Source of the DNA: a virus
Lineage: Duplodnaviria > Heunggongvirae > Uroviricota > Caudoviricetes
Virus record (IMG/VR): IMGVR_UViG_2778261353_000007
Span: 1 to 11,342 of that record
Reading direction: 5' to 3' (one strand)
Length of the DNA stretch: 11,342 nt
Shown: one piece after another, positions 1-11,342 of the stretch
Numbering within the stretch: position 1 is the stretch's first letter
Layout of the letters: the number at the start of each line of letters is the position of its first letter
Notes under the pieces: generated by a model
Seen by the model: the letters and a program-made list of their open reading frames with translations, nothing else
Database searches by the model: none
Told to the model about the DNA's origin: nothing
Made by a program: the position numbers and the translations under genes

Positions 1-255
1 CTGCTTTTCCTTGATGCTATAGGGGTGCTGAGACCGATAACGCATTTTGTAAACCATCCCTGTGAGAGCGAATATTCCGATATCTGGTTATTAATTTATG
101 ATTCTTGTTTTATGTGATCGTGGTAGCGTTAATTCCGCTCATATATCATTGTAAAATATGGGTTTTATATGAACTATAATGCTTTCGTGATAATACGCTG
201 CGTGTATTAGGCGGAAAAAACTGATCTGGGGGATGTAGAAACTCAAGGAAGTAGC

Positions 256-261
256 TATAAT
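256..261 (+). promoter_or_regulatory. Candidate -10 hexamer (TATAAT) of the selC promoter
   Basis: Exact TATAAT about 31 nt upstream of the mature tRNA 5' end; no convincing -35 seen. Position-based inference only. Confidence 0.3.
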
Positions 262-292
262 GCGCCCCGCCTCCATGTAGCAATCGAGGCGC

Positions 293-387
293 GGAAGATC
301 GTCGTCTCCGGTGAGGCGGCTGGACTTCAAATCCAGTTGGGGCCGCCAGCGGTCCCGGGCAGGTTCGACTCCTGTGATCTTCCGCCA
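293..387 (+). tRNA. selC: tRNA-Sec (selenocysteine, anticodon UCA)
   Basis: 95-nt sequence GGAAGATCGTCGTCTCCGGTGAGGCGGCTGGACTTCAAATCCAGTTGGGGCCGCCAGCGGTCCCGGGCAGGTTCGACTCCTGTGATCTTCCGCCA matches the E. coli selC tRNA as I recall it: long variable arm, anticodon TCA at 327-329, encoded 3' CCA. The minus-strand ORFs overlapping it are spurious. Confidence 0.93.
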
Positions 388-549
388 AACCTCATCCAGC
401 CAGTTCCGAGACACTCCATAAAATCCTTTATATTCAATACGATGAATAATCAGCTTGTCCGTAATAGTCCGAGAGCATCTCCCTGAATCCGCGAAAAATA
501 TGTATAGTAATGTGTATAGATTTTTTATAAGTAGTATTCAGTTATACAC

Positions 550-1728
550 ATGGCTCTAACCGATATACAGATCAAACGAGCAAAACCACAAGACAAGCCA
601 TACACATTGAACGATGGACAAGGTCTGTCATTGCTTATCAATCCCGATGGCTCGAAAGGCTGGCGTTTCCGTTTCCGATTTGCAGGAAAAGCGCGGTTAA
701 TGTCATTTGGCAGCTACGATTTAGTAAGCCTCGCAGAAGCACGTGAGAAGCGTGATATCGCCCGTAAGCAGGTTGCTAATGGCATTGACCCGGTAGAGGA
801 ACGCAAAGCTTTAAGACTCGCCCAAAAGCTATCAACAGAAAATTCTTTCGAAGCAATATGTCGAGAATGGCATACCAACAAAGCTGACCGCTGGACTGTG
901 GCCTATCGAGAAGAAATTATTAAGACATTCGAGCAGGATGTCTTCCCGTTCATTGGTAAACGTCCTATCAGTGAAATCAAACCATTAGAACTGCTTGAAG
1001 TATTGCGACGAATAGAGAAACGAGGAGCACTAGAGAAGACCAGAAAAGTGCGCCAAAGATGCGGTGAGGTCTTTCGTTATGCAATCATAACTGGCCGAGC
1101 TGAATACAATCCAGCACCTGATTTAGCTATCGCTCTGGCCGTTCCTAAGCAAAAACACCACCCATTTTTATCTGCCGAAGAGTTGCCTTATTTTATTCAA
1201 GATCTTGAAGCGTATACCGGAAGCATCATCACTAAAAATGCGACAAAGATAGTCATGTTAACTGGCGTAAGAACTCAGGAAATGCGCTTTGCCACGTGGG
1301 ATGAAGTTGACCTTGAGAAAGGAATATGGGAGATTCCAGCTGAAAGGATGAAAATGCGCAGGCCTCATATTGTACCTCTATCTACTCAGGTGATTGCCCT
1401 TTTTAAACAGCTCAAGCCTATTAGCGGCCATTATCCCTACATTTTTATTGGAAGAAATAATCGTAGTAAACCGATCTCTAAAGAAAGTGTATCACAGGTT
1501 ATTGAATTACTAGGCTACAAAGGTCGCGCTACAGGTCACGGATTTAGACATACTATGTCAACCATTTTGCACGAAAAGGGATTTGACAGTGTATGGATTG
1601 AAATGCAATTAGCTCACTTAGATAAAAATACTATTCGAGGTACATATAACCATGCACAATATTTAGAGAAGAGAAAAGATATGATGCAATGGTATGCGGA
1701 CTTTTTATACAAATCATTGGAGCGGTAA
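550..1728 (+). CDS. int: Tyrosine site-specific recombinase, P4-type integrase
   Basis: 392-aa ORF directly downstream of a tRNA gene. N-terminus MALTDIQIKRAKPQDKPYTLNDGQGL is typical of P4-family integrase arm-binding domains. C-terminal catalytic signature is present: Arg in LTGVRTQE, HGFRHT box and Tyr in RGTYNHAQY. No obvious Shine-Dalgarno before the ATG. Confidence 0.9.
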   Translation: MALTDIQIKRAKPQDKPYTLNDGQGLSLLINPDGSKGWRFRFRFAGKARLMSFGSYDLVSLAEAREKRDIARKQVANGIDPVEERKALRLAQKLSTENSFEAICREWHTNKADRWTVAYREEIIKTFEQDVFPFIGKRPISEIKPLELLEVLRRIEKRGALEKTRKVRQRCGEVFRYAIITGRAEYNPAPDLAIALAVPKQKHHPFLSAEELPYFIQDLEAYTGSIITKNATKIVMLTGVRTQEMRFATWDEVDLEKGIWEIPAERMKMRRPHIVPLSTQVIALFKQLKPISGHYPYIFIGRNNRSKPISKESVSQVIELLGYKGRATGHGFRHTMSTILHEKGFDSVWIEMQLAHLDKNTIRGTYNHAQYLEKRKDMMQWYADFLYKSLER

Positions 1729-1737
1729 ACGCTCCAA
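1717..1737. terminator. Perfect 8-bp stem / 5-nt loop hairpin between convergent int and membrane-protein genes (possible bidirectional terminator)
   Basis: TTGGAGCG-GTAAA-CGCTCCAA spans the int stop codon; no clear U-tract on either strand, so terminator function is uncertain. Confidence 0.3.
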
Positions 1738-1744
1738 TACATAA

Positions 1745-2386
1745 TTAATATATGGATGCTATTACCATTAAGACTTTAAAGAAAAACATGACGACAATTA
1801 ACCAGATAATTAAATACCCCCAAATACTACTGATATGATAGTTAATTCTACCTTTTAGCATCCTCCAAAAGCTAAAATTTTCAGGCGTATGGGAAATATA
1901 ATATCTGCTCTTTACTATTTTATGATATTCATAATCAACAGGGCTATGGTTGAAAGTGCATGTTGATTTTATTTTTTCATACTCATCGCGAAGATTATCT
2001 ATATTTTTATAATCTTCTTCAGTCATTTCATTTTTTAAGCTATTTTTGAATAGAGAAAGTTTCCTTTCATACTCATTAAGTAACTCAGCATTTCTAAAGA
2101 GAGCTTCAGATTTAGCTCCTGATGCAACTCCCCACTCAATAAGACTAATTATAATTAATAGCATACTTAAGATAATAGAAAATGCGGTTATTAATATATT
2201 GAGTTTAGGATTTATATCATTAATCCAAAAATATTGCATTAATGATAATATAATACTGGAAAGGCCAATTAAAGCGAGACTAATAGTTGAAAAGATCTCT
2301 CTGACCTTTAATCGACGGGATGAATTATATCTTGCACACGATGTTTCCCATGCAGCTTTACTTAGGCTATCCAAAAAATCTTTCAT
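1745..2386 (-). CDS. Hypothetical membrane protein with three predicted TM segments; candidate effector partner of the adjacent reverse transcriptase
   Basis: ORF track gives 1745..2482 (245 aa). I prefer the internal start MKDFLDSL at 2386 (213 aa) because GGAG lies 6 nt upstream (2393-2396) and the longer N-terminus runs into the GC-rich spacer. Hydrophobic stretches IFSTISLALIGLSSIILSLMQYF, LNILITAFSIILSMLLIIISLI and C-terminal ISSIWGYLIIWLIVVMFFFKVLMVIASIY; charged, probably helical region between TM2 and TM3. AT-rich like the RT gene. No family recognised. Confidence 0.65.
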   Translation of the reverse strand: MKDFLDSLSKAAWETSCARYNSSRRLKVREIFSTISLALIGLSSIILSLMQYFWINDINPKLNILITAFSIILSMLLIIISLIEWGVASGAKSEALFRNAELLNEYERKLSLFKNSLKNEMTEEDYKNIDNLRDEYEKIKSTCTFNHSPVDYEYHKIVKSRYYISHTPENFSFWRMLKGRINYHISSIWGYLIIWLIVVMFFFKVLMVIASIY

Positions 2387-2580
2387 TATAAACTCCATGA
2401 ATAGTATAAAGTGACGCAACGCCGGAGATATCAGTCCAATCCTCTTCACCAGCAGTTTCCCCCGATGAAGGTTTACTACCATTTTAGGTCAGGAGCACTT
2501 CTGCCCATCACGGCATTTCCGCATGGGGTACGGCACCTGCAAGGCAAGTGCCGTCGGCGTTGGTCAAGCTCAATATATCA

Positions 2581-3990
2581 TTATTTAGGATATACTTCAC
2601 CTTCATCTGCATGCATGCTAGCTAGATTTTTAGCTTTATATCTCTCATAACGCTCTTCAACCTGTTCTTTAGTTAACCTCTCACCTTCAGCAATCCTTCC
2701 GCGCCGGTGCAAGAATTCAGTTTTTTGTTTAACAGTTTTAATCTGGTCGTAATCTCGTATATAACCTCTATGTGGGCTATATTTCATTTCATAATAAGCA
2801 CGTGTTACCTTTTTCAATCCTTCAGGTGCACAATTATCAAAATCATCCAAGCGTTTAAACATTTCTCTTATTATAAAATCTATTTTATGCAGAAGAGAGT
2901 GGTCGGTAATATTTGAATAATAAGCCACCCATCCATATCTTTTTTTCTCACTAATAGCCCCTGTTAACTTATCATTTAACTCTTCCAGAAAAACATCTTT
3001 AAGATCATCAACGGTTAAATGTGTATACTTCTTTAAACGTTTATTTTTATTGTGAAGATAGTCACTAAACCTAGATGCGATTGATTTTATAAATGATTCT
3101 ACAGTCGAATCTCGCACTGTTATAACATTTGCATTAAAAACATATCCCAAAAAGCTAAAAGACTCATTAAGAAAACCTAAACGTGTCTTAGATGATGTTG
3201 GCGGATGAGTGTTTAATCCCCTATATTTAAGCCTACGCCGTAGTGAATGATAAGCTGAATTTACCTCGTCATAATTTCCATAAATTAGCACATCATCAAC
3301 ATATCTATAGTAAGCTACATCAAACTTTAGCATTTTATCATCAACACTTTGCAGATAAATTGCAGCTAAAATATTAGATATTGACAACCCTTGAGGAACT
3401 CCCTTTTCATTATCAAAAAAAAACTTCCTCATTTTTTTATTAACACTATCACTTGTTGTTGGTGTTAAAAGAGAACGAACTATGAGGTCCAACGCTCTTT
3501 TACAATGCACTCTTTTTGATAGAATCTTTTTAAGTCGATGTTTGTTTATATTGTCATAGAAACCTTCAATATCACAACTACAAACATAAATATCTTCAGG
3601 GGGCATATCTTTTAAATCATCCGAGATATTTCTAATATAAGTTGAAGCAATACTCTTAGGTACACAATCAGGGAAAATCTCACAAAGAAAAACATTGAGC
3701 TGTTTTAATACAATGCGATCTCTAATTGTTGGTATAGAAATTACCCTAGGACTTTTTCCTCGCCCTTTACTTTTTAATTTTTCTAAGTAAGGAGTAAATC
3801 TAAATGAACCGTCAAGACATTTTTCCGAAACTTTCTTTAATTCCTTTCTGGCTCTACTTGAATATTGCATGCCATTGATTCTGTCAATGCCTTTTGCTGC
3901 CGACTTACTAAATTTATCAGAATACACATCAAATAAAGATTTTGGGGAGAAGAGTTTTTTAAATAACGTTTCTTGTGCTCGTTCATCCAT
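2581..3990 (-). CDS. Reverse transcriptase (RNA-directed DNA polymerase), unclassified, probably defence-associated
   Basis: 469-aa ORF with the RT motif series: AAKGIDRINGMQY (motif 0/1-like), RVISIPTIRDRIVLKQL (motif 2), CDIEGFYDNI (motif A, catalytic Asp), GVPQGLSISNILAAIYL (motif B'), YRYVDDVLIYG (motif C, YxDD), FLGYVF (primer grip). About 180-aa charged C-terminal extension. SD-like AAGGTG 5 nt before the ATG. Very AT-rich relative to the P4 backbone. Confidence 0.9.
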   Translation of the reverse strand: MDERAQETLFKKLFSPKSLFDVYSDKFSKSAAKGIDRINGMQYSSRARKELKKVSEKCLDGSFRFTPYLEKLKSKGRGKSPRVISIPTIRDRIVLKQLNVFLCEIFPDCVPKSIASTYIRNISDDLKDMPPEDIYVCSCDIEGFYDNINKHRLKKILSKRVHCKRALDLIVRSLLTPTTSDSVNKKMRKFFFDNEKGVPQGLSISNILAAIYLQSVDDKMLKFDVAYYRYVDDVLIYGNYDEVNSAYHSLRRRLKYRGLNTHPPTSSKTRLGFLNESFSFLGYVFNANVITVRDSTVESFIKSIASRFSDYLHNKNKRLKKYTHLTVDDLKDVFLEELNDKLTGAISEKKRYGWVAYYSNITDHSLLHKIDFIIREMFKRLDDFDNCAPEGLKKVTRAYYEMKYSPHRGYIRDYDQIKTVKQKTEFLHRRGRIAEGERLTKEQVEERYERYKAKNLASMHADEGEVYPK

Positions 3991-4129
3991 TGCATCACCT
4001 TATATTACGTCACGACTATTCCGTCTGACCACTTAATATCATGAATTCATTGCGTTCTTATAGCAAAATTTAATAAAAACTGCATTAACCTTCACTATTG
4101 ATTGGTCGCATTAAATTCTTATGCGCGCA

Positions 4130-4148
4130 GTGCTTTCCCCGCCTCGCC
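4130..4148 (-). other. cos site: 19-nt P2/P4 cohesive-end sequence
   Basis: Minus strand reads GGCGAGGCGGGGAAAGCAC, which matches the P2/P4 cohesive-end sequence as I recall it. It lies downstream of psu, as in P4, and is flanked by GC-rich hairpins (4147-4167 and 4197-4218). Confidence 0.55.
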
Positions 4149-4250
4149 CGCCCGCTTTGCGGGGCGGTTTTAATGCAGTTGCACTGACACGCTCAGACCG
4201 CGCCGGGAATGGCGCGGTTTGCAGAAAATGAGGCAGGAAAACGCATGCAA

Positions 4251-4282
4251 AGCCATGCACCTTATCGATGCATGGCTTTTTT
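4251..4282. terminator. Rho-independent terminator-like hairpin downstream of psu (possibly bidirectional)
   Basis: 9-bp stem AGCCATGCA / TGCATGGCT with a 9-nt loop, followed by a T-run on the plus strand; A-rich tract on the other side. Sits between the psu stop (4313) and cos. Confidence 0.45.
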
Positions 4283-4312
4283 CAGTAAAAACGGGCGGAT
4301 TTTCGGGGGGTT

Positions 4313-4885
4313 TTACACAGACTGATGTGATGCCAGTTGCGCACTTTTACGCGAAAAAATCATATTCTGCGCAGGAGTGAATTTTTCACGGCTGTCATCC
4401 ACCGAAGCCGCGTCAGGCCTGAATCCGATGGTCGTTAAAATGTCGCTATCCTGTGCGGAATAATTAATTTTTTCCCCCTTCGCAAGCCAGGACAGAAGGG
4501 CTTCACGCAGGGCATCTGTGGCACGCTGTATGGCACAGTTTCGGGCAATGGCCGTCAGCTCACTGTAGCCCATCAGCTCCGGTGCCAGTGCGGCCGCCAG
4601 TGCTGTGCCGTGCTGCTGCATAAAATCATTCAGCCGGTCGCGGATGCTGATGTGCTGAACGGCTTCATGCGAACGAATATAACGACCGGCAGCCTGATTC
4701 ACCTGCCATTTTCTGACTTCGATAATATTGCGTAATTCGTCCAGGCGACTGACGTTTCTGCCTTCCCCGGACAGAAGCCGCAGATATTCCTGTTCGGCCG
4801 CAGCCAGCTCATTTTTGCGTTGCAGCCATGCTGCTTTGTTATTCTGACAGGTGTCAAAGGCCTGCTGTAAGGCTGTGCTTTCCAT
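4313..4885 (-). CDS. psu: Polarity suppression protein Psu (capsid decoration / Rho antagonist)
   Basis: 190-aa ORF, the size I recall for P4 Psu; last gene of a minus-strand sid-delta-psu operon, followed by terminator and cos exactly as in P4. Confidence 0.88.
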   Translation of the reverse strand: MESTALQQAFDTCQNNKAAWLQRKNELAAAEQEYLRLLSGEGRNVSRLDELRNIIEVRKWQVNQAAGRYIRSHEAVQHISIRDRLNDFMQQHGTALAAALAPELMGYSELTAIARNCAIQRATDALREALLSWLAKGEKINYSAQDSDILTTIGFRPDAASVDDSREKFTPAQNMIFSRKSAQLASHQSV

Positions 4886-4958
4886 CGTTATCTCTTTCTC
4901 ATCATGCTGAAGAATAAAAATACGGTGTGCGGCGACGGCCGGGGTTAACCGGCAGCCC

Positions 4959-5459
4959 TCATTCCAGACGCAGCGAATATGATTGTGTTTTTAACCGTAC
5001 TGGCGGCAGTTCCTGTTTTTCATGCAGGCGTTCTGCCAGTTCGTCCGGCGTGACCGGGCGGACAATGAAGCGGTTGATGGTCTGAAGCGTTTTAAACACC
5101 AGACCACAGCCCGGATCCGTGCACACATAAAAACGTTCGGTGACTTCCTGAGACAGACGCCGCGATGTTCTTGACAGTGCAAGGCCGTTACATCTCCGAC
5201 AACAATATCCGGTAACAAGCATTCTTTTCGGGCGTTTCATACTGCCGGAGGCAGAAGTCAGTGAATCGCGGTATCTCTGTTTGCCTGAAATGTATTCCAT
5301 TCCTGAATCTTTACTGTCAGAGAAAAAGCTTTCACTCGCTTCAAATGTCGCAGAGCAATAAATATTCCGGCACTGTGCAATCATTATCTTGGTGCCATCG
5401 TCCATGAAATGTGCGCGACGAGTGTGAGCAACATGTCCACACGACGGGCAGTAAATCAT
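4959..5459 (-). CDS. delta: Late gene transcriptional activator Delta (tandem Ogr-type zinc finger)
   Basis: 166-aa ORF with two Cys-rich zinc-finger units (CPSCGH...CRNIYC and CCRRCNG...CTDPGCG), matching a duplicated Ogr-like fold. Start overlaps the sid stop (ATGA), indicating translational coupling. Confidence 0.88.
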   Translation of the reverse strand: MIYCPSCGHVAHTRRAHFMDDGTKIMIAQCRNIYCSATFEASESFFSDSKDSGMEYISGKQRYRDSLTSASGSMKRPKRMLVTGYCCRRCNGLALSRTSRRLSQEVTERFYVCTDPGCGLVFKTLQTINRFIVRPVTPDELAERLHEKQELPPVRLKTQSYSLRLE

Positions 5460-6190
5460 GACAGCAGTCCTCTGGCCTTAAGCTCTGCACCCTGCTGGTC
5501 TATTTTGTCCTGCCACACCTTGCGCTGTGCCGGTGTGCCTGCCACCTCATAATCCATGTGCGGGAGTGTTGCCGCTGACAGTCCGGTCAGCCGGAGAACC
5601 GGCTCGCCGGTGAGGCTGATTTGCATCTGTTTAATTTTCTGTTCCAGCGATGATTTCACCTGCTGCATGACAGCCTTTTCCGGTGCGACGTAGCCCTGAT
5701 GGCCGGTGGTGTTGGCGAGCGGATTTTCCTGTACCAGAATGCTCAGATGCATTGCCCGGACAAGCGCCTCACAGGTTTCATTCAGGGCGTGTTCCAGCTC
5801 ATGCTCTGCATACAGACTCAGAAGGTGATGATGTGCCTTCCGGTAGGCGGTGGCCGTGCTGTCACACGCCCCTTTCAGGCGTTCGCGTTCAAAATTCAGC
5901 ACCACGGCCAGATTGTCATATTCCTGTACCAGCTCCCGGCGTGCCACGCGCTCAATGTGGCGCTGTTTCAGCTCGTCGCTCAGGACACCACCGGCTGCAC
6001 GAAAGGCCGTGCGCCAGTCGTCAGCGTCGTTTCCGTCGGCCTGCGCCAGCGCATTTTTTTCCTGCTCTGCCCGTTCAATGGCCGTGACGGTCTCATCCAT
6101 CAGACGGGCGTTCTCAAGATGGGCGGCTCTGGCCTTTTCCAGTTGTGCCAGCGCGGATTGCAGATATTCAGGGATGGTGTTGTCAGACAT
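5456..6190 (-). CDS. sid: Capsid size determination protein Sid (external scaffold)
   Basis: 244-aa ORF, the size I recall for P4 Sid; first gene of the late operon; GAGGAG Shine-Dalgarno upstream of the ATG; helical, Ala/Glu/Leu-rich composition. Confidence 0.9.
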   Translation of the reverse strand: MSDNTIPEYLQSALAQLEKARAAHLENARLMDETVTAIERAEQEKNALAQADGNDADDWRTAFRAAGGVLSDELKQRHIERVARRELVQEYDNLAVVLNFERERLKGACDSTATAYRKAHHHLLSLYAEHELEHALNETCEALVRAMHLSILVQENPLANTTGHQGYVAPEKAVMQQVKSSLEQKIKQMQISLTGEPVLRLTGLSAATLPHMDYEVAGTPAQRKVWQDKIDQQGAELKARGLLS

Positions 6191-6261
6191 TTTCGGCTCC
6201 TCGTCACTTCAGGTTGAGAAAATTGTGACGTACACCGGACAACAACACGACGCATTGCAGA

Positions 6262-6279
6262 TGTGCCAGCCCTGACACA
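6262..6279 (-). promoter_or_regulatory. TGT-N12-ACA dyad, candidate Delta/Ogr activator site of the sid late promoter (Psid)
   Basis: TGTGCCAGCCCTGACACA lies 72-89 bp upstream of the sid ATG, consistent with an activator site centred near -55 of a P2/P4-type late promoter. A second TGT-N12-ACA at 6224-6241 lies closer to the gene. Confidence 0.4.
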
Positions 6280-6358
6280 GGAGACTCATCCTCACACCGG
6301 CAAGCCAGGAAAAGGTCGCAGGAAAAACCGGCTTACTGTTTGTTTTTTTATATTTTAC

Positions 6359-6462
6359 TGTTCACCTCTGTTCACCATAAGAAAAAAGATAAGTAATACA
6401 GTAAGTTAAATGGTGAACAATCGCAGTAATGACTGTTCACCGTCTGTTCACCACTGTTCACC
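6359..6462. repeat. Iteron cluster: six copies of octamer TGTTCACC (five direct, one inverted), ori-like alpha-binding sites
   Basis: Octamers at 6359, 6369, 6434, 6445, 6455 (plus strand) and 6412-6419 (GGTGAACA, inverted). TGTTCACC is the alpha-protein binding iteron of P4 ori/crr as I recall; it lies about 4.8 kb from a second cluster after alpha. Confidence 0.6.
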
Positions 6463-6566
6463 CGTTGATGGGCTTTTTGTGCTGTTTATTACTGTTTGTT
6501 TTTATTAATTCGCCGGGAATGAATAAGAAAAAACGATTTGTATTTCACTATAAAAATTACGAATTG

Positions 6567-6596
6567 CTTTAAGTGGCTTTAAATGACTTTAAGTGG
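6567..6596. repeat. Three tandem 10-bp repeats CTTTAAGTGG / CTTTAAATGA / CTTTAAGTGG
   Basis: Direct tandem repeats with 10-bp (one helical turn) periodicity in the control region upstream of vis; possible protein-binding array. Confidence 0.35.
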
Positions 6597-6621
6597 AGAT
6601 GAACAAAAAACACACAAGCAT

Positions 6622-6639
6622 TGTAAGGCTGCCGGAACA
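6622..6639 (+). promoter_or_regulatory. TGT-N12-ACA dyad, candidate Delta/Ogr site of the rightward late promoter (PLL-like) driving vis
   Basis: TGTAAGGCTGCCGGAACA lies about 100-120 bp upstream of the vis ATG; same dyad class as the Psid site, in divergent orientation. Confidence 0.3.
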
Positions 6640-6741
6640 AATCCCCCCTGTTGCGTCTGCTGAAAATATTCACAAAATAAAGCGCTACCCGAAGCCGGAC
6701 GGACTTATCCGGTGCTGTATGGACATTAACGAGGTAGCCCG

Positions 6742-7008
6742 ATGCAAGCTGTTTTTTCTTCCCCGTCTCCCGCCCCTGTGACGCCACTGATGCCGCTGCC
6801 GGACATCACGCAGGAGCGTTTTTTACGTCTGCCGGAAGTGATGCACCTGTGCGGCCTGTCACGCTCGACCATCTATGAACTCATCCGTAAGGGGGAATTT
6901 CCGCCGCAGGTGAGTCTTGGCGGTAAAAATGTGGCCTGGCTGCACTCTGAAGTCACCGCATGGATGGCCGGCCGCATTGCCGGACGCAAACGGGGGTATG
7001 ACGCATGA
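6742..7008 (+). CDS. vis: AlpA/Vis-family small DNA-binding regulator (excisionase-like)
   Basis: 88-aa ORF with the AlpA-type helix-turn-helix core [27 protein letters not shown] and a conserved Trp-containing tail; GAGGT Shine-Dalgarno 7 nt upstream. Same size and position as P4 orf88/vis as I recall. Confidence 0.75.
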
Positions 7009-7604
7009 TGATGCCCGCTCTGCAAAAAGTCCCTTTTTCTGGCTTGCCTTTTTCCGGCATTTGCGGATATAGTTTTTCCGCTGTCGCAAAATCGGCAGCC
7101 GGGCGTGGAAACCCGAGCAATCTAACGGCGACATATGACGCGCCATGCGTCTTTTTTTGTGTCGCAATCAACGCCACAGAGCGCCAGATTATGGTGTGGT
7201 GTGTGGTCAGTCGAGCAGATGGCACTCCGTGCATCCTGCCCGCGTCCGCTCATTATGCCGCAGAGTCAATGGTAGCTCAGGCGGGGCAGCCTCCGGGCTG
7301 GCCGGTATCCGTTAGAGCCGGTATTTCCACCCCCGTCTGGGCTATCGCCATCGAGCGTGGAAACTCCGGCGATAGCGTAACCTGCTATCTAACGGAGGCT
7401 GCCATCATGGCTACAACCCTTACCCCTTCACACCCTGAATTTGTCTTTGTGTTTGCGGCTGTCCGTCGCGCAGACCGTCATCCCCGTATCTGCATGCTTC
7501 GCACCGTCGCCGGTGATGAACGCAGTGCCCGCCGTTCCCTTGTCCGTGACTATGTGCTCTCCCTTGCTGCCCGTCTGCCGGTGGTGGAGGTGTCCCGTGC
7601 GTAA
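7005..7604 (+). CDS. Questionable 199-codon ORF overlapping the early promoter and immunity RNA region
   Basis: ATG overlaps the vis stop (ATGA), but the frame runs straight through seqA, the candidate CI RNA and seqC, and has Ala/Arg/Pro-rich low-complexity composition. Possibly only an N-terminal kil-like portion is real, or none of it. Confidence 0.2.
7044..7073 (+). promoter_or_regulatory. Candidate early promoter (PLE-like): TTGCCT, 18-bp spacer, TATAGT
   Basis: -35-like hexamer at 7044-7049 and -10-like hexamer at 7068-7073, about 30 bp upstream of seqA. Match by eye only. Confidence 0.3.
7103..7129 (+). promoter_or_regulatory. seqA-like target of the immunity RNA
   Basis: GCGTGGAAACCCGAGCAATCTAACGGC; its ends (GTGGAAA ... 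ATCTAACGG) are complementary to CCGTTAGA ... TTTCCAC at 7309-7330. A near-repeat lies at 7355-7397. Confidence 0.4.
7271..7346 (+). ncRNA. Candidate CI-like immunity RNA containing seqB
   Basis: Contains seqB-like CCGTTAGAGCCGGTATTTCCAC (7309-7330), complementary to seqA and seqC. GGTAGC (7271-7276) can pair with GCTATC (7341-7346) as a closing helix, with internal hairpin CAGCC-TCCG-GGCTG. Boundaries approximate. Confidence 0.35.
7355..7397 (+). promoter_or_regulatory. seqC-like second target of the immunity RNA
   Basis: GCGTGGAAACTCCGGCGATAGCGTAACCTGCTATCTAACGGAG repeats the seqA end motifs (GTGGAAAC ... ATCTAACGG) downstream of seqB. Confidence 0.4.
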
Positions 7605-7884
7605 TAAAAAAGCCCCTCAGACCGTCTCAGCGCGTCATGACGCCCGTGAACACCTCAGCATTGAGGCTTACCATAAGCTCAACCGCGCCAGCGCCGTATC
7701 CCAGTTTGTTGGGGGTGATTTGATTCACCGTGAACTCTCCGGCCTGCATCAGCTCTACATTCCGCATATTTTCAGCTACCTGAATGAAGATATTGATTTT
7801 GTGCTGAATGAACTGAAAGCCAAAGGCCTGTGCCGCGATTTTCTCGCCCAGCAGAAAGACCGGGGAGACAGGACGCATGTTTGA
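7597..7884 (+). CDS. Small protein (95 aa), possible epsilon-like antirepressor
   Basis: In-frame GTG at 7597 is preceded by GGAGG at 6 nt; the ORF-track ATG at 7441 would lie inside the immunity RNA region. Stop overlaps the next start (ATGTTTGA). The epsilon assignment is by position and size only. Confidence 0.45.
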
Positions 7885-8332
7885 TTTTCCCCAGCCCGGT
7901 GAGATTTACCGTTCTGCCGGTTTTCCCGATGTGGCCGTGGTCGGCATTCTGGAAGACGGTATTCCGTGGGAAATGCCGTACCGCTGCCCGGACATTGTCT
8001 GGAACCCGTACCGCCGTAAATTCAGTATCCTTGTGCGTATCCTCGCTGACGGGCGCACCACAGACATCCCGCTGGGGCGTTTTCTGCGGGAATTTACCTG
8101 TGACCGTCCTGACCTGTTTAAACGCAGCCCCGTAAACCGGCATGCGGTACTGAAAGAAATGGCCGGAGACCCGGAATTACAGAAATGGCGGGAGAAATAT
8201 CTGGATATTTACCCGCAGGCCCCTGTTCCGGTCAGCCGGGCGACACCGGTGGCGCGGGAATGGCGGGAAATCCCCCGCACGGAGCCTGACCCGGAAATCA
8301 CACCGGATAACAGTTACCGCAATTATCTGTAA
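7877..8332 (+). CDS. Hypothetical protein, 151 aa (P4 orf151-like)
   Basis: ORF translationally coupled to the preceding gene, same strand as alpha, backbone-like GC content. Function unknown. Confidence 0.6.
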   Translation: MFDFPQPGEIYRSAGFPDVAVVGILEDGIPWEMPYRCPDIVWNPYRRKFSILVRILADGRTTDIPLGRFLREFTCDRPDLFKRSPVNRHAVLKEMAGDPELQKWREKYLDIYPQAPVPVSRATPVAREWREIPRTEPDPEITPDNSYRNYL

Positions 8333-8467
8333 TTAAAAAACGACACCCGAAAAATTAAATGTGCGTATTCGCGCAGGGATACGCACGTCTTCAGGAGACG
8401 CAGATATGCCTTATCAGTTAATGCAACCGGCACGGAATGCAGTCATCTGTCACAGGGAGGAAAGCAA

Positions 8468-8788
8468 ATGAAAACACCCTTACCGCCCGTCTTACGCGCA
8501 GCCCTTTACCGTCGTGCTGTCGCCTGTGCCTGGCTGACCGTGTGCGAACGTCAGCACCGCTACCCGCATCTCACCCTTGAATCACTGGAGGCGGCCATCG
8601 CCGCTGAGCTGGAAGGCTTTTATCTGCGCCAGCACGGTGAGGAAAAAGGGCGTCAGATAGCCTGTGCCCTGCTGGAAGATTTAATGGAATCCGGCCCCCT
8701 GAAGGCCGCGCCGTCGCTGTCCTTTCTCGGGCTGGTTGTGATGGATGAACTCTGTGCCCGTCACATAAAAGCGCCGGTACTGCACTGA
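8468..8788 (+). CDS. Hypothetical protein, 106 aa (P4 orf106-like)
   Basis: Strong GGGAGG Shine-Dalgarno upstream of the ATG; sits immediately upstream of alpha. Function unknown. Confidence 0.6.
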
Positions 8789-8802
8789 AGGAGAACAACA
8801 CC

Positions 8803-11145
8803 ATGAAAATGAACGTAACCGCCACCGTCAGCCATGCGCTCGGCCACTGGCCGCGTATTCTCCCGGCGCTGGGGATTCAGGTGCTGAAAAACCGTCATCA
8901 GCCCTGTCCGGTCTGTGGCGGGAGTGACCGCTTCCGTTTTGATGACAGGGAGGGGCGCGGCACCTGGTACTGCAATCAGTGTGGTGCCGGTGACGGCCTG
9001 AAACTGGTTGAAAAGGTGTTTGGTGTTTCCCCGTCCGATGCGGCCGCAAAGGTGGCTGCCGTGACCGGCAGCCTGCCCCCGGCTGACCCGGCAGTGACGG
9101 CTGCCGCCGGTGCTGAAACAGACGCTGCCCGGAAGAACGCAGCCGCACTGGCACAAACCCTGATGGCGAAAACCCGTCCCGGAACCGGTAACGCCTACCT
9201 GACCCGCAAGGGCTTTCCCGACCGGGAATGCCGGATGCTGACCGGCACACACAGAGCCGGTGGCGTGAGCTGGCGCGCCGGTGACCTTGTGGTGCCACTG
9301 TATGACGACAGCGGCGAACTGGTTAACCTTCAGTTAATCAGTGCTGACGGCCGTAAGCGCACCCTGAAAGGCGGACAGGTCAGGGGCACCTGTCACACCC
9401 TTGAAGGACAGAATCAGGCCGGAAAACGTCTGTGGATAGCGGAGGGATACGCGACCGCACTTACCGTGCATCACCTGACCGGTGAAACGGTGATGGTGGC
9501 GCTTTCTTCCGTGAACCTCCTTTCTCTGGCCAGCCTTGCCCGGCAGAAGCATCCGGCCTGTCAGATTGTCCTTGCCGCAGACCGTGACCTCAGCGGTGAC
9601 GGCCAGAAAAAAGCCGCCGCAGCCGCAGATGCGTGTGAAGGTGTTGTTGCCCTGCCGCCGGTCTTCGGTGACTGGAATGATGCCTTCACGCAGTACGGCG
9701 GGGAAGCCACCCGTAAGGCCATTTATGATGCCATCCGGCCACCGACTGAAAGCCCGTTCGACACCATGAGCGAAGCGGAGTTTTCCGCCATGAGTACCAG
9801 CGAAAAGGCCATGCGTATCTATGAGCATTACGGCGAGGCGCTCGCGGTCGATGCCAACGGCCAGCTTCTGTCCCGCTATGAAAATGGTGTCTGGAAGGTG
9901 CTGCCGCCACAGGACTTTGCCCGGGATGTGGCCGGGCTGTTTCAGCGTCTGCGCGCGCCGTTCTCCTCCGGGAAGGTGGCCTCCGTGGTGGACACCCTGA
10001 AGCTGATTATTCCGCAGCAGGAAGCCCCCTCCCGCCGCCTGATTGGCTTTCGTAACGGCGTGCTCGACACGCAGAACGGCACGTTCCACCCGCACAGTCC
10101 GTCACACTGGATGCGCACCCTGTGCGATGTGGATTTCACCCCGCCGGTGGAAGGGGAAACGCTGGAAAACCACGCCCCCGCGTTCTGGCGCTGGCTTGAC
10201 CGTGCCGCCGGTGGCCGTGCGGAAAAACGCGACGTGATTCTGGCCGCACTGTTTATGGTGCTGGCAAACCGCTACGACTGGCAGCTCTTTCTGGAGGTGA
10301 CCGGTCCCGGCGGCAGCGGCAAAAGTATCATGGCCGAAATCGCCACCCTGCTGGCCGGGGAGGATAACGCCACGTCGGCCACCATCGAGACGCTGGAATC
10401 CCCGCGTGAACGTGCCGCGTTAACTGGCTTCTCACTGATACGCCTGCCGGACCAGGAAAAATGGAGCGGCGACGGTGCCGGACTCAAGGCCATCACTGGC
10501 GGCGATGCGGTGTCCGTGGACCCGAAATACCGGGATGCGTACTCCACGCATATCCCGGCGGTGATTCTGGCCGTGAACAATAACCCGATGCGCTTCACCG
10601 ACCGCAGCGGCGGCGTGTCACGCCGGCGGGTGATTATTCACTTCCCGGAACAGATAGCCCCGCAGGAGCGCGACCCGCAGCTTAAGGACAAAATCACCCG
10701 CGAGCTGGCGGTCATTGTGCGTCACCTGATGCAGAAGTTCAGCGACCCGATGCTCGCCCGGTCACTGCTTCAGTCCCAGCAGAACTCAGACGAGGCACTG
10801 AACATCAAACGGGATGCCGACCCGACGTTTGATTTTATCGGCTATCTGGAAACCCTGCCGCAGACCAGCGGCATGTATATGGGGAACGCCAGTATCATCC
10901 CGCGTAATTACCGTAAATACCTCTATCACGCCTATCTGGCCTACATGGAGGCAAACGGCTACCGGAATGTACTCAGTCTGAAAATGTTCGGGCTGGGGCT
11001 GCCGGTGATGCTGAAGGAATACGGACTGAATTACGAGAAGCGCCATACCAAACAGGGGATACAGACCAACCTGACGCTGAAAGAGGAAAGCTACGGCGAC
11101 TGGCTGCCAAAATGTGACGACCCTGCGACAACCCGACCCTCATGA
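8803..11145 (+). CDS. alpha: Replication protein alpha: primase (zinc finger + TOPRIM) fused to helicase, with C-terminal origin-binding region
   Basis: 780-aa ORF. N-terminal zinc motif CPVCGGSDRFRFDD...YCNQCG; TOPRIM-like region around WIAEGYATALTV and AADRDLSGDGQKKA; Walker A GPGGSGKS. AGGAG Shine-Dalgarno upstream. Size and architecture match P4 alpha. Confidence 0.92.
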   Translation: MKMNVTATVSHALGHWPRILPALGIQVLKNRHQPCPVCGGSDRFRFDDREGRGTWYCNQCGAGDGLKLVEKVFGVSPSDAAAKVAAVTGSLPPADPAVTAAAGAETDAARKNAAALAQTLMAKTRPGTGNAYLTRKGFPDRECRMLTGTHRAGGVSWRAGDLVVPLYDDSGELVNLQLISADGRKRTLKGGQVRGTCHTLEGQNQAGKRLWIAEGYATALTVHHLTGETVMVALSSVNLLSLASLARQKHPACQIVLAADRDLSGDGQKKAAAAADACEGVVALPPVFGDWNDAFTQYGGEATRKAIYDAIRPPTESPFDTMSEAEFSAMSTSEKAMRIYEHYGEALAVDANGQLLSRYENGVWKVLPPQDFARDVAGLFQRLRAPFSSGKVASVVDTLKLIIPQQEAPSRRLIGFRNGVLDTQNGTFHPHSPSHWMRTLCDVDFTPPVEGETLENHAPAFWRWLDRAAGGRAEKRDVILAALFMVLANRYDWQLFLEVTGPGGSGKSIMAEIATLLAGEDNATSATIETLESPRERAALTGFSLIRLPDQEKWSGDGAGLKAITGGDAVSVDPKYRDAYSTHIPAVILAVNNNPMRFTDRSGGVSRRRVIIHFPEQIAPQERDPQLKDKITRELAVIVRHLMQKFSDPMLARSLLQSQQNSDEALNIKRDADPTFDFIGYLETLPQTSGMYMGNASIIPRNYRKYLYHAYLAYMEANGYRNVLSLKMFGLGLPVMLKEYGLNYEKRHTKQGIQTNLTLKEESYGDWLPKCDDPATTRPS

Positions 11146-11152
11146 CTCACCT

Positions 11153-11176
11153 GACCGGCATCTGCCGGTCTTTTTT
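11153..11176 (+). terminator. Rho-independent terminator of alpha
   Basis: GACCGG-CATCTG-CCGGTC hairpin immediately followed by TTTTTT, 8 nt after the alpha stop codon. Confidence 0.7.
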
Positions 11177-11194
11177 ATCCCTGAAATCCCCGAA

Positions 11195-11285
11195 GGTGAA
11201 CAATCCACTGTTCACCCTTCACCGTATATTCACCCGTTATCACACTGAAATTAAAAGAGAAAAACGAAAGGTGAACAGTGTGAAC
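11195..11285. repeat. Second iteron cluster (crr-like, cis replication region), probably truncated by the window end
   Basis: GGTGAACA at 11195 and 11270, TGTTCACC at 11209, and degenerate copies (CTTCACC, ATTCACC, GTGAACA) immediately downstream of alpha. Confidence 0.5.
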
Positions 11286-11342
11286 AATCAAATCAAAAAA
11301 AACTTTTTTTTCTCCCTGTGTGATTTCAGTACGGGGGATTAA

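Follow-up and report, generated by a model that had tools for sequence, protein, structure and literature searches.

Introduction

Type A P4-like satellites are defined by seven co-localised core components (Moura de Sousa & Rocha 2021, PMC8628076). A defence hotspot has been described in P4 together with the reverse transcriptase (RT)-SLATT locus of E. coli H120 (PMC9122126; also Rousset et al. 2021 and 2022), and it was this H120 locus, also catalogued in the DRT10 papers, that led to the published hotspot. The locus has been assigned to UG17-B, and control by SbcB has been described, in the same study (10.64898/2026.04.29.721553). UG17-B is defined by an RT upstream of SLATT and a gap of about 200 bp that holds an ncRNA (Sanchez-Nieto et al. 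2026). The mechanism of DRT10, a bacterial RT now discussed as a telomerase relative, and the A-B-A' rule for its template are both given in PMC12632851.

Here we describe a stretch of 11,342 nt (hereafter the window) that is identical over its full length (100%) to E. coli VG12A2. With a probability of roughly 0.88, we read it as almost the whole of an apparently intact P4-family (Type A) satellite of 11.26 kb, placed in the 3' end of selC by a tyrosine integrase specific to this gene and carrying DRT10 as cargo. The element is of an already known, well-documented kind, with nothing new in its type, and it opens no new question; Rousset et al. 2022 set out from the same RT-SLATT pair in the P4-like satellite of H120. 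What the window does offer, within 11 kb, is a natural example of three published ideas, namely the swapping of an integrase module for selC use, the int-cos hotspot as an anti-phage carrier, and DRT10 as cargo. It may also be used as a reference annotation, in which cos, att, ori, crr, the CI RNA, seqA, seqB and seqC, the DRT10 ncRNA and its template are all placed exactly.

Boundaries and insertion site

In VG12A2, a strain whose source is a Swiss farm environment, the flanking genes are yicJ-selC on one side and setC on the other. The left end of the element reads as follows.

293-387, plus strand: selC, tRNA-Sec gene with anticodon TCA, the integration target (ARAGORN; Rfam tRNA-Sec, 83.8 bits)
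367-389, unstranded: attL core GACTCCTGTGATCTTCCGCCAAA, 23 bp (exact-match search)
550-1728, plus strand: tyrosine integrase, 392 aa, selC-specific type (Pfam Arm-DNA-bind_3, Phage_int_M and Phage_integrase; BLASTP)

The original prediction had placed a P4-type satellite with complete replication, late-gene and immunity backbone at selC and its right-hand junction outside the window. Every feature that it listed is present, and the junction lies about 280 bp beyond the window end, where an identical 23-bp copy of the selC 3' end forms attR (15622-15644 of locus L002, equivalent to 11622-11644 of the window). This repeat, whose absence would have spoken against the prediction, was found at the expected distance; the two direct repeats at the tRNA gene are 11,255 bp apart, and the position of attR therefore sets the element length at 11.26 kb. 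Two sequence marks of a P4-like satellite, att direct repeats and a P2-type cos, were found.

All seven core components (integrase, psu, delta, sid, alpA/vis, epsilon and alpha) are co-localised at full length and in P4 order, as Type A requires, and eta/kil, orf151 and orf106 are likewise full length. Neither frameshifts nor stop codons occur in the backbone, and the inactivating mutations named beforehand as a possible contradiction did not appear, with no backbone gene disrupted. Against P4 Int, the integrase reaches only 38% identity (BLASTP); in other selC satellites it is matched at 93-94% nucleotide identity up to position 1695. The earlier view that only the gop/beta/cII region had been exchanged was wrong, as the integrase and the att site have been swapped too.

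A P4 backbone from cos to crr

The P4-homologous part begins at 4122, with 97.9% nucleotide identity to P4 across 4122-11342. The proteins of this part are 94-100% identical to those of P4 and equal in length with the exception of alpha. The packaging, late and replication features are these.

4122-4200, minus strand: cos region (P2 and P4 cos matches)
4313-4885, minus strand: psu (98.9% aa identity to P4 Psu; Pfam Psu)
4959-5459, minus strand: delta, late transcription activator (98.2% aa identity to P4 Delta; Pfam Ogr_Delta)
5456-6190, minus strand: sid, capsid size determinant, 244 aa (99.2% aa identity to P4 Sid)
6224-6279, unstranded: two TGT-N12-ACA dyads upstream of sid, Psid region (pattern search)
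6359-6462, unstranded: six exact ori type-1 octamers, TGTTCACC / GGTGAACA (the annotated P4 repeats 9310-9413)
6567-6596, unstranded: three copies of the ori type-2 decamer repeat (mapping to P4 9176-9205, with zero differences)
6622-6639, unstranded: TGT-N12-ACA dyad upstream of vis, PLL region (pattern search)
6742-7008, plus strand: vis / alpA (orf88) (98.9% aa identity to P4 orf88; Pfam Phage_AlpA)
8803-11145, plus strand: alpha primase-helicase, 780 aa (Pfam Zn_Ribbon_Prim, Toprim_3, D5_N, DUF5906 and Pox_D5)
about 11190-11309, unstranded: first 120-bp crr repeat (three exact and two one-mismatch octamers; P4 annotation)

The exact 19-nt cohesive end GGCGAGGCGGGGAAAGCAC lies on the minus strand at 4148->4130, with flanks that also match both P4 and P2, and psu, delta and sid have the lengths of their P4 counterparts. 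Three TGT-N12-ACA dyads occupy the sid-vis intergenic region (6224, 6262 and 6622), the two of the Psid region starting at 6224 and 6262 with arms unchanged from P4. Across the window the pattern occurs 5 times against 2.25 expected by chance, which is not significant alone; with the count set aside, their position and their conservation with P4 point to these dyads as the putative late-promoter sites.

The six exact copies of GGTGAACA compare with 0.3 expected across the whole window. Both iteron clusters had been claimed for the window: the ori cluster is there, whereas only half of crr, the first of its two 120-bp repeats, falls inside. The second repeat lies at 15377-15468 of L002 (window-equivalent 11377-11468), so that ori and, in the source genome, crr are intact. 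Alpha is 98.8% identical to P4 alpha over 776 aa and retains all primase and helicase domains; at 780 aa against 777 in P4 it has three extra codons, in frame, and ends in ...CDDPATTRPS where P4 alpha ends in ...CDDPTTA. Together with the immunity RNA region, every one of the predicted landmarks (int, cos, sid-delta-psu, the late-promoter dyads, vis and alpha) was located.

The immunity region

Between vis and alpha lie the immunity RNAs and the remaining regulatory genes.

7005-7604, plus strand: eta (orf199) with nested kil (7407-7604, 65 aa) (ORF list, Pfam Phage_ASH, translation)
7080-7157, plus strand: leader RNA (Rfam isrK family) with seqA (Rfam, 72.5 bits)
7105-7111 and 7121-7128, plus strand: boxes 1 (GTGGAAA) and 2 (TCTAACGG) of seqA
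7265-7352, plus strand: CI immunity RNA (Rfam C4) with seqB (Rfam, 76.2 bits)
7309-7316 and 7324-7330, plus strand: boxes 2 (CCGTTAGA) and 1 (TTTCCAC) of seqB
7357-7396, plus strand: seqC target, with box 1 at 7357-7363 (GTGGAAA) and box 2 at 7388-7396 (TCTAACGGA)
7597-7884, plus strand: epsilon, helper derepression protein (98.9% aa identity to P4 epsilon; Pfam Derepression, 7.7e-51)
7877-8332, plus strand: orf151 (97.4% aa identity to P4 orf151)
8468-8788, plus strand: orf106, DUF5375 (100% aa identity to P4 orf106)

The names eta and kil for the open reading frames at 7005-7604 follow Forti et al. 1999. The eta frame overlaps the immunity RNA region, and seqC overlaps the kil ribosome-binding site. 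IsrK is equivalent to P4 SeqA (PMC4825925). SeqB is complementary to both the upstream seqA and the downstream seqC, through an 8-9-nt box and a 7-nt box at each target. These boxes covary across 10 elements, and those of the present element are complementary to one another and not to the P4 versions. This is a second respect in which more than gop/beta/cII departs from P4, through coordinated compensatory changes in seqA, seqB and seqC. Since both boxes differ from those of P4 in a compensated way, the element is predicted to have an immunity specificity of its own, different from that of P4.

A broader reading, tentative and in our estimate rather unlikely, would treat the P4-type immunity region as a modular two-box address code. 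Copies of a given box would stand at seqA, seqB and seqC alike, and reassortment of boxes among otherwise near-identical satellites would yield many that lack cross-immunity to one another and can share a genome. Box 1 is found as GTGGAAA, GTGAGAA or GTAGGAA, and box 2 as TCTAACGG, TTCACAGG, CTCGAAGG or GTTATCGG. If this were true, the window would represent one combination (GTGGAAA with TCTAACGG) of a population-wide combinatorial system undescribed at such a scale. Immunity specificity determined by seqB has reportedly been published already for P4 and phiR73, and the novelty would be limited to the combinatorial population picture.

The cargo between int and cos

Homology to other selC satellites stops at 1695 and restarts at 4123, leaving a variable slot between int and cos (approximately 1696-4122) in which GC falls to roughly 30%. 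When the phage collection was searched with the int-to-cargo segment in distant mode, the sole match was a 64-bp integrase stretch in an Erwinia phage. The slot contains the following.

1715-1739, minus strand: terminator-like hairpin where the SLATT and int genes converge (consensus scan)
1745-2386, minus strand: DRT10 SLATT_5 two-transmembrane effector, 213 aa (Pfam SLATT_5, 3.7e-31; PADLOC RTasSLATT, 1e-35)
2412-2566, minus strand: DRT10 ncRNA, Eco2-like / UG17-B type, 155 nt, structured (covariance model)
2430-2441, minus strand: predicted A-B-A' template GAU-UGGACU-GAU, inside the template loop 2425-2443
2581-3990, minus strand: UG17 (DRT10) RT, 469 aa (PADLOC RT_UG17, 4.4e-140; Pfam RVT_1)

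By sequence, this cargo belongs to subtype UG17-B of the DRT10 defence systems, its parts running RT - ncRNA - SLATT. The replacement of the accessory region had been correctly anticipated, and the cargo, then left unnamed, can now be given this identity. A UG17-clade RT with a YxDD motif, an adjacent SLATT_5 gene and a structured ncRNA with an A-B-A' template after a stem-loop are all present, and the 194-bp spacer between the RT stop (2581) and the SLATT start (2386) contains the ncRNA, which is the arrangement of UG17-B. The RT has the accession of the E. coli H120 RT (WP_000344414.1), also found in Tang Table S1; its YVDD (residues 230-233) and its C-terminal Y467 are invariant in an alignment of 22 homologues, and Y467 is probably the priming residue. 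The SLATT_5 domain spans residues 1-202 of the 213-aa form of its partner, the form used by PGAP and in Tang et al. Table S1. A longer SLATT frame of 245 aa, starting at 2482, probably has the wrong start, given that the added part runs into the ncRNA and that SLATT_5 starts only at residue 33 of this frame.

Some databases name this RT a "maturase" or "retron-type RT", and phiR73, also at selC, is a P4-like element with retron Ec73 according to the title of Sun et al. 1991, so that a retron or a group II intron maturase might come to mind. Such an identity is scarcely conceivable here. The best PADLOC match is RT_UG17 at 4.4e-140, far ahead of the generic RT model (2.7e-35) and of retron RT models, SLATT_5 is the partner, and the adjacent RNA matches the model of the DRT10 Eco2-type ncRNA; the intron RNA domain and an endonuclease context are absent, and an Rfam scan at the gathering score returned neither group II intron nor retron RNA. 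Family scores, partner gene and ncRNA type together rule it out in favour of DRT10.

The ncRNA was matched over the full model length (51.7 bits, E 3e-12) by a covariance model built on five published ncRNAs, with the window sequence left out, and its minimum free energy has a z-score of -5.3. Among 30 loci both sides change in 45 of 51 pairs, and 91% of cells are paired compared with about 45% when partners are slid, in an alignment that was fitted to the model and favours the modelled structure. Inside the template loop, the RNAalifold-derived model has a weakly supported helix 10 (79.7% of cells paired), which is probably unreal because the published structure leaves that loop unpaired. The score of 51.7 bits is below the 60-160 bits of betaproteobacterial relatives because one internal stem-loop is shortened, 16 model positions being missing between the GAAGUGCUCC motif and SL5.

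It might be argued from this lower score and these missing positions that the module in VG12A2 is present but inactive, for example through loss of function caused by the shortened stem-loop. We consider this very improbable: exactly this RT is found on 753 public contigs and exactly this SLATT on 923, a spread that suggests selection; in H120 the activity of the identical RT suffices to make sbcB essential; and a Serratia locus (L003), with an RT only 66% identical, has the same template loop and a similar model score (61.1 bits).

For a functional DRT10 module, the A-B-A' pattern, conserved in the compared DRT10 loci, allows the product to be predicted as a cDNA of 9-nt tandem repeats, the complement of GAUUGGACU. 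By analogy with the published mechanism, the RT would copy the GAU-UGGACU-GAU template into protein-primed ssDNA of tandem 9-nt repeats, probably primed from Y467, and host ExoI (SbcB) would keep this DNA in check. Phage infection would then tip the balance, and the SLATT membrane effector would abort the infection. The locus could serve directly as a test case for UG17-B, the DRT10 subtype that has had less study.

Proposed life cycle and mobility

From the P4 literature, we infer how the VG12A2 copy would excise, replicate and be packaged. CI RNA in the lysogen would pair with seqA and seqC and end the PLE transcripts early, leaving alpha silent. With a P2-type helper present, epsilon would derepress the helper, and Delta/Ogr would fire Psid and PLL via the TGT-N12-ACA dyads. 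Vis and Int may then excise the element and alpha replicate it from ori with crr, after which Sid and Psu would remodel helper capsids and the helper terminase would cut cos.

An alternative is that the element is a cryptic or domesticated remnant, with intact frames but mobilisation lost, kept in the chromosome solely as an island for defence. Fixation at tRNA sites is seen in many P4-like elements, the C-terminus of alpha is altered, and the same backbone is found at selC in many E. coli lineages, all of which could be accommodated by such a history. We nevertheless regard it as unlikely, since the whole set of seven core genes is intact, as are cos, ori, the two crr repeats, the attL/attR pair and the immunity pairings, frameshifts and stop codons are absent, and the turnover of cargo at one site among near-identical backbones points to active exchange and not decay. 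An apparently intact satellite is the reading that we carry into the comparison below.

Comparison with known systems

The closest relative in backbone is P4 (X51522 / NC_001609), with which the element shares gene order and 97.9% nucleotide identity from cos through crr, including psu, delta, sid, vis, eta/kil, CI RNA, epsilon, orf151, orf106, alpha, ori and crr. It differs from P4 in its integrase (38% identical) and in its target, which is selC and not P4's own site, in the replacement of gop-beta-cII by DRT10, in both complementarity boxes of seqA, seqB and seqC, and in an alpha C-terminus that is 3 aa longer. The likeness to the P4-like satellite of H120, whose contig is NZ_CADILR010000068.1, rests on the shared RT accession (WP_000344414.1) and on module position, the RT-SLATT module sitting between psu and int there; the strain is different (VG12A2).

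The cargo resembles the DRT10 / UG17 systems described by Tang et al. 2025 and by Sanchez-Nieto et al. 2026: its UG17 RT has YVDD and, at the C-terminus, a conserved hydroxyl residue (Ser or Tyr in DRT10), SLATT_5 is the partner, and the structured ncRNA lying upstream of SLATT has an A-B-A' template that follows a stem-loop. In contrast to the better-studied SLATT-RT order (Eco3, UG17-A), the VG12A2 copy is arranged as RT-ncRNA-SLATT (UG17-B / Eco2-like), and one internal stem-loop of its ncRNA is shortened. In a comparison with the published Eco2DRT10, neither its ncRNA strings nor six of the nine circular permutations of its predicted cDNA repeat turned up in the truncated supplementary texts. 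Finally, retronphage phiR73 is, to judge from the titles of Sun et al. 1991 and Inouye et al. 1991, likewise a P4-like, selC-integrated element with RT-based cargo; compared by description, phiR73 carries retron Ec73, whereas the VG12A2 element carries DRT10.

Integration site and variable slot

The whole 11,342-bp window is 100% identical to a stretch of Escherichia coli VG12A2 (NZ_CP128592.1, 47893-59234, minus strand), in whose genome it is flanked by yicJ and setC. The left end carries the following features.

293-387: tRNA-Sec gene (selC), called by ARAGORN and Rfam
367-389: attL, 23-bp repeat GACTCCTGTGATCTTCCGCCAAA
550-1728: tyrosine integrase (392 aa) downstream of selC, with arm-binding, central and catalytic domains

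A second copy of the 23-bp repeat, attR, lies at 15622-15644 of L002 (the same locus with its flanks in the source genome), some 280 bp beyond the right edge of the window and 11,255 bp from attL. The original prediction had placed the right junction of a P4-type satellite outside the window, as found here, and had held that a missing attR would count against it; the repeat is present. The int gene that it listed is also there, but is not that of P4, sharing 38% identity with P4 Int, and a megablast search of the window found no P4 match left of 4122. In other selC-resident satellites the integrase is retained at 93-94% nucleotide identity up to 1695 and the backbone is common from 4123 on, with AIPR, dCTP deaminase, SIR2 or AAA-ATPase cargo in between. 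As integrase and backbone are common to these satellites while the cargo differs, the left part represents a different integration module followed by a variable slot at ~1696-4122, which is the int-cos/psu hotspot of Rousset et al. 2022 (PMC9122126).

Several further observations concern the site itself. Two "Campylobacter phage" records of 174 kb each (MG065686 and MG065691) contain stretches 100% identical to the selC region (window 1-389), which look like contaminating E. coli DNA or chimeric assembly. Between attR and setC lies a rhuM-family pseudogene fragment (L002 15721-15882, ~100 bp beyond attR; also at 11748-11876 of a further locus, L058), probably the scar of an earlier selC island. 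In O157:H7 FRIK2455 a second integrase gene (L057 12252-12345) directly follows a selC P4-like satellite with dCTP-deaminase cargo, indicating tandem islands at selC. The whole-window search matched three places in the VG12A2 chromosome, NZ_CP128592.1, which therefore probably holds further P4-like elements.

The P4 backbone and its cis-acting sites

From 4122 to its end the window aligns to P4 (X51522) across the P4 ends (P4 nt 27-1, then 11624-4440), and the main 7.2-kb block (4149-11342) is 97.9% identical. All P4 reading frames of this stretch are present at P4 length, the sole change in length being at the alpha C-terminus (...CDDPATTRPS in the window versus ...CDDPTTA in P4). Protein identity to P4 is 98.9% for Psu, 98.2% for Delta, 99.2% for Sid, 98.9% for orf88/Vis, 98.9% for epsilon, 97.4% for orf151, 100% for orf106 and 98.8% over 776 residues for alpha, whose zinc-ribbon primase, Toprim, D5_N, helicase and D5 C-terminal domains are all retained. 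The sites on this backbone are as follows.

4148->4130, minus strand: cos, exact match to the 19-nt P2/P4 cohesive end GGCGAGGCGGGGAAAGCAC
6224, 6262 and 6622: three TGT-N12-ACA dyads in the sid-vis intergenic region
6359-6462: ori, all six type-1 octamers
6567-6596: ori, three type-2 decamers, unchanged from P4
~11190-11309: first 120-bp crr repeat, the only one inside the window

The window has nine copies of the type-1 octamer, where 0.3 would be expected. The window-wide count of dyads is not significant alone, their weight coming from position and conservation with P4; we take them to be the Delta/Ogr sites of the P2/P4 late-promoter literature.

Immunity region

Differences from P4 in this region are concentrated in the complementarity boxes, each site having a box 1 and a box 2, with seqB inside the CI RNA, seqA upstream and seqC downstream.

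7080-7157: leader RNA (Rfam isrK family)
7105-7111 and 7357-7363: seqA and seqC box 1, GTGGAAA (P4 GTGAGAA)
7121-7128: seqA box 2, TCTAACGG (P4 TTCACAGG)
7265-7352: CI RNA (Rfam C4 family)
7309-7316: seqB box 2, CCGTTAGA (P4 CCTGTGAA)
7324-7330: seqB box 1, TTTCCAC (P4 TTCTCAC)
7388-7396: seqC box 2, TCTAACGGA (P4 TTCACAGGA)

P4 CI RNA pairs with seqA and seqC, terminating transcription, and IsrK is a structural homologue of the P4 SeqA RNA (PMC4825925). Box pairing is perfect inside each element, whereas no match between P4 and the window element exceeds 4-6 nt. Across ten aligned elements (loci L049-L056 among them) the DNA around the boxes is nearly invariant; at least three alleles of box 1 and four of box 2 occur, each matched at seqA, seqB and seqC, and the box 1/box 2 combinations are reassorted between satellites. 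Since the boxes are complementary within the element and mismatched to P4, we predict from sequence a functional immunity with a specificity unlike that of P4. A mismatched case is L052 (E. coli O157:H7 FRIK944, NZ_CP016625.1 4853810-4854290), where seqA carries GTGGAAA / TTCACAGG against GTGAGAA / GTTATCGG alleles in its own seqB and seqC, a mismatch that points to recombination with a breakpoint between seqA and the CI RNA; termination that depends on seqA may also be impaired.

The core of the original prediction is borne out: cos, psu/delta/sid, dyads, vis, immunity RNAs and alpha were all found in a P4-type satellite at selC, and the inactivating mutations that it named as a counter-sign do not apply, with P4 reading frames at P4 length and alpha domains kept. 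The immunity region is complete, with CI and leader RNA, although the allele is not P4's, both boxes having changed. Of the two iteron clusters claimed, ori is complete but crr is represented in the window by its first repeat, the second lying just beyond (L002 15377-15468). The view that only gop/beta/cII had been exchanged has to be given up, as the integration module and immunity allele also differ from P4.

The DRT10 cargo

Both slot genes are on the minus strand, with a GC content of ~30% against 50-63% in the backbone. The 469-aa reverse transcriptase (RT) has RT_UG17 as its top PADLOC match (4.4e-140; runner-up 2.7e-35), and its partner is a SLATT_5 protein (PADLOC RTasSLATT, 1e-35; Pfam, 3.7e-31). 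UG17 paired with SLATT is the DRT10 defence system (PMC12632851; 10.64898/2026.04.29.721553), which also requires a third component, an ncRNA upstream of SLATT. The order RT, 194-bp spacer, SLATT is the "RT-SLATT arrangement" of the UG17-B subtype. A 245-aa SLATT ORF from a mechanical ORF list was set aside: it overlaps the ncRNA, and PGAP and Tang et al. instead begin the protein at 2386 (213 aa). In the RT, YVDD occupies residues 230-233, and a tyrosine two residues from its C-terminus (Y467), invariant in 22 homologues, parallels the reported C-terminal Tyr/Ser priming residues of Eco1 and Eco3, making it a candidate priming residue.

A covariance model trained on five Eco2-like ncRNAs published by Tang et al. 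(Table S2), leaving the window out, gave one match in the window, at full model length (2566->2412, minus strand; 51.7 bits, E 3e-12). In 29 loci with RT homologues ~46-66% identical, it placed the RNA directly downstream of the RT stop codon. In the resulting 30-sequence alignment, 91% of cells are paired, both partners vary in 45 of 51 pairs, and covariation scores 0.54, compared with 0.08-0.13 once partners are slid by 1-3 columns, figures to be read with the caveat that the alignment was fitted to the model. The segment folds alone with a z-score of -5.3 and has a GC content of ~55% versus ~30% in the adjoining RT and SLATT genes; window 2412-2566 (minus strand) had no Rfam 15 match at gathering thresholds. 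The loop after its last stem-loop, AGGAUUGGACUGAUAUCUC, includes GAU-UGGACU-GAU (2441->2430), and GAU...GAU recurs at an 8-10 nt period in most relatives. Taken with the published A-B-A' rule, this motif predicts a cDNA product that would be a 9-nt tandem repeat. The identical template loop occurs in Serratia sp. AKBS12 (L003 3924-4086), although the RT there is only 66% identical; betaproteobacterial relatives, unlike both, have GAUAUGACC(U)GAU-type templates.

Proposed working and relation to known systems

At the level of sequence, the element has intact genes and sites, att repeats and internally complementary immunity RNAs, together with a DRT10-type RT/ncRNA/SLATT trio in which the catalytic, candidate priming and template features are conserved. 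Going by the literature, transcription in the lysogen would be terminated via CI RNA, cross-talk between the element and a P2-type helper would run through epsilon and Delta, Vis and Int would excise the element, alpha would replicate it from ori and crr, the capsid would be remodelled by Sid and Psu, and helper terminase would cleave cos. [quoted passage not shown]

Much of this has precedent. The RT (RefSeq WP_000344414.1) is listed by Tang et al. as E. coli H120 UG17_locus_1580, with a 213-aa SLATT; the H120 RT-SLATT system opens Rousset et al. 2022 (PMC9122126), and Sanchez-Nieto et al. 2026 assign the H120 locus to UG17-B and report that DRT10 toxicity is suppressed by SbcB. The exact RT occurs on 753 public contigs and the exact SLATT on 923; of 5,426 complete E. 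coli genomes, four contain the element in full. Moura de Sousa & Rocha class P4-like elements that have the complete set of seven core genes as Type A, and retronphage phiR73 is a long-known P4-like selC element with an RT. The element is real and well formed and, given the same RT in H120, the Type A class and the phiR73 precedent, already known in every major respect.
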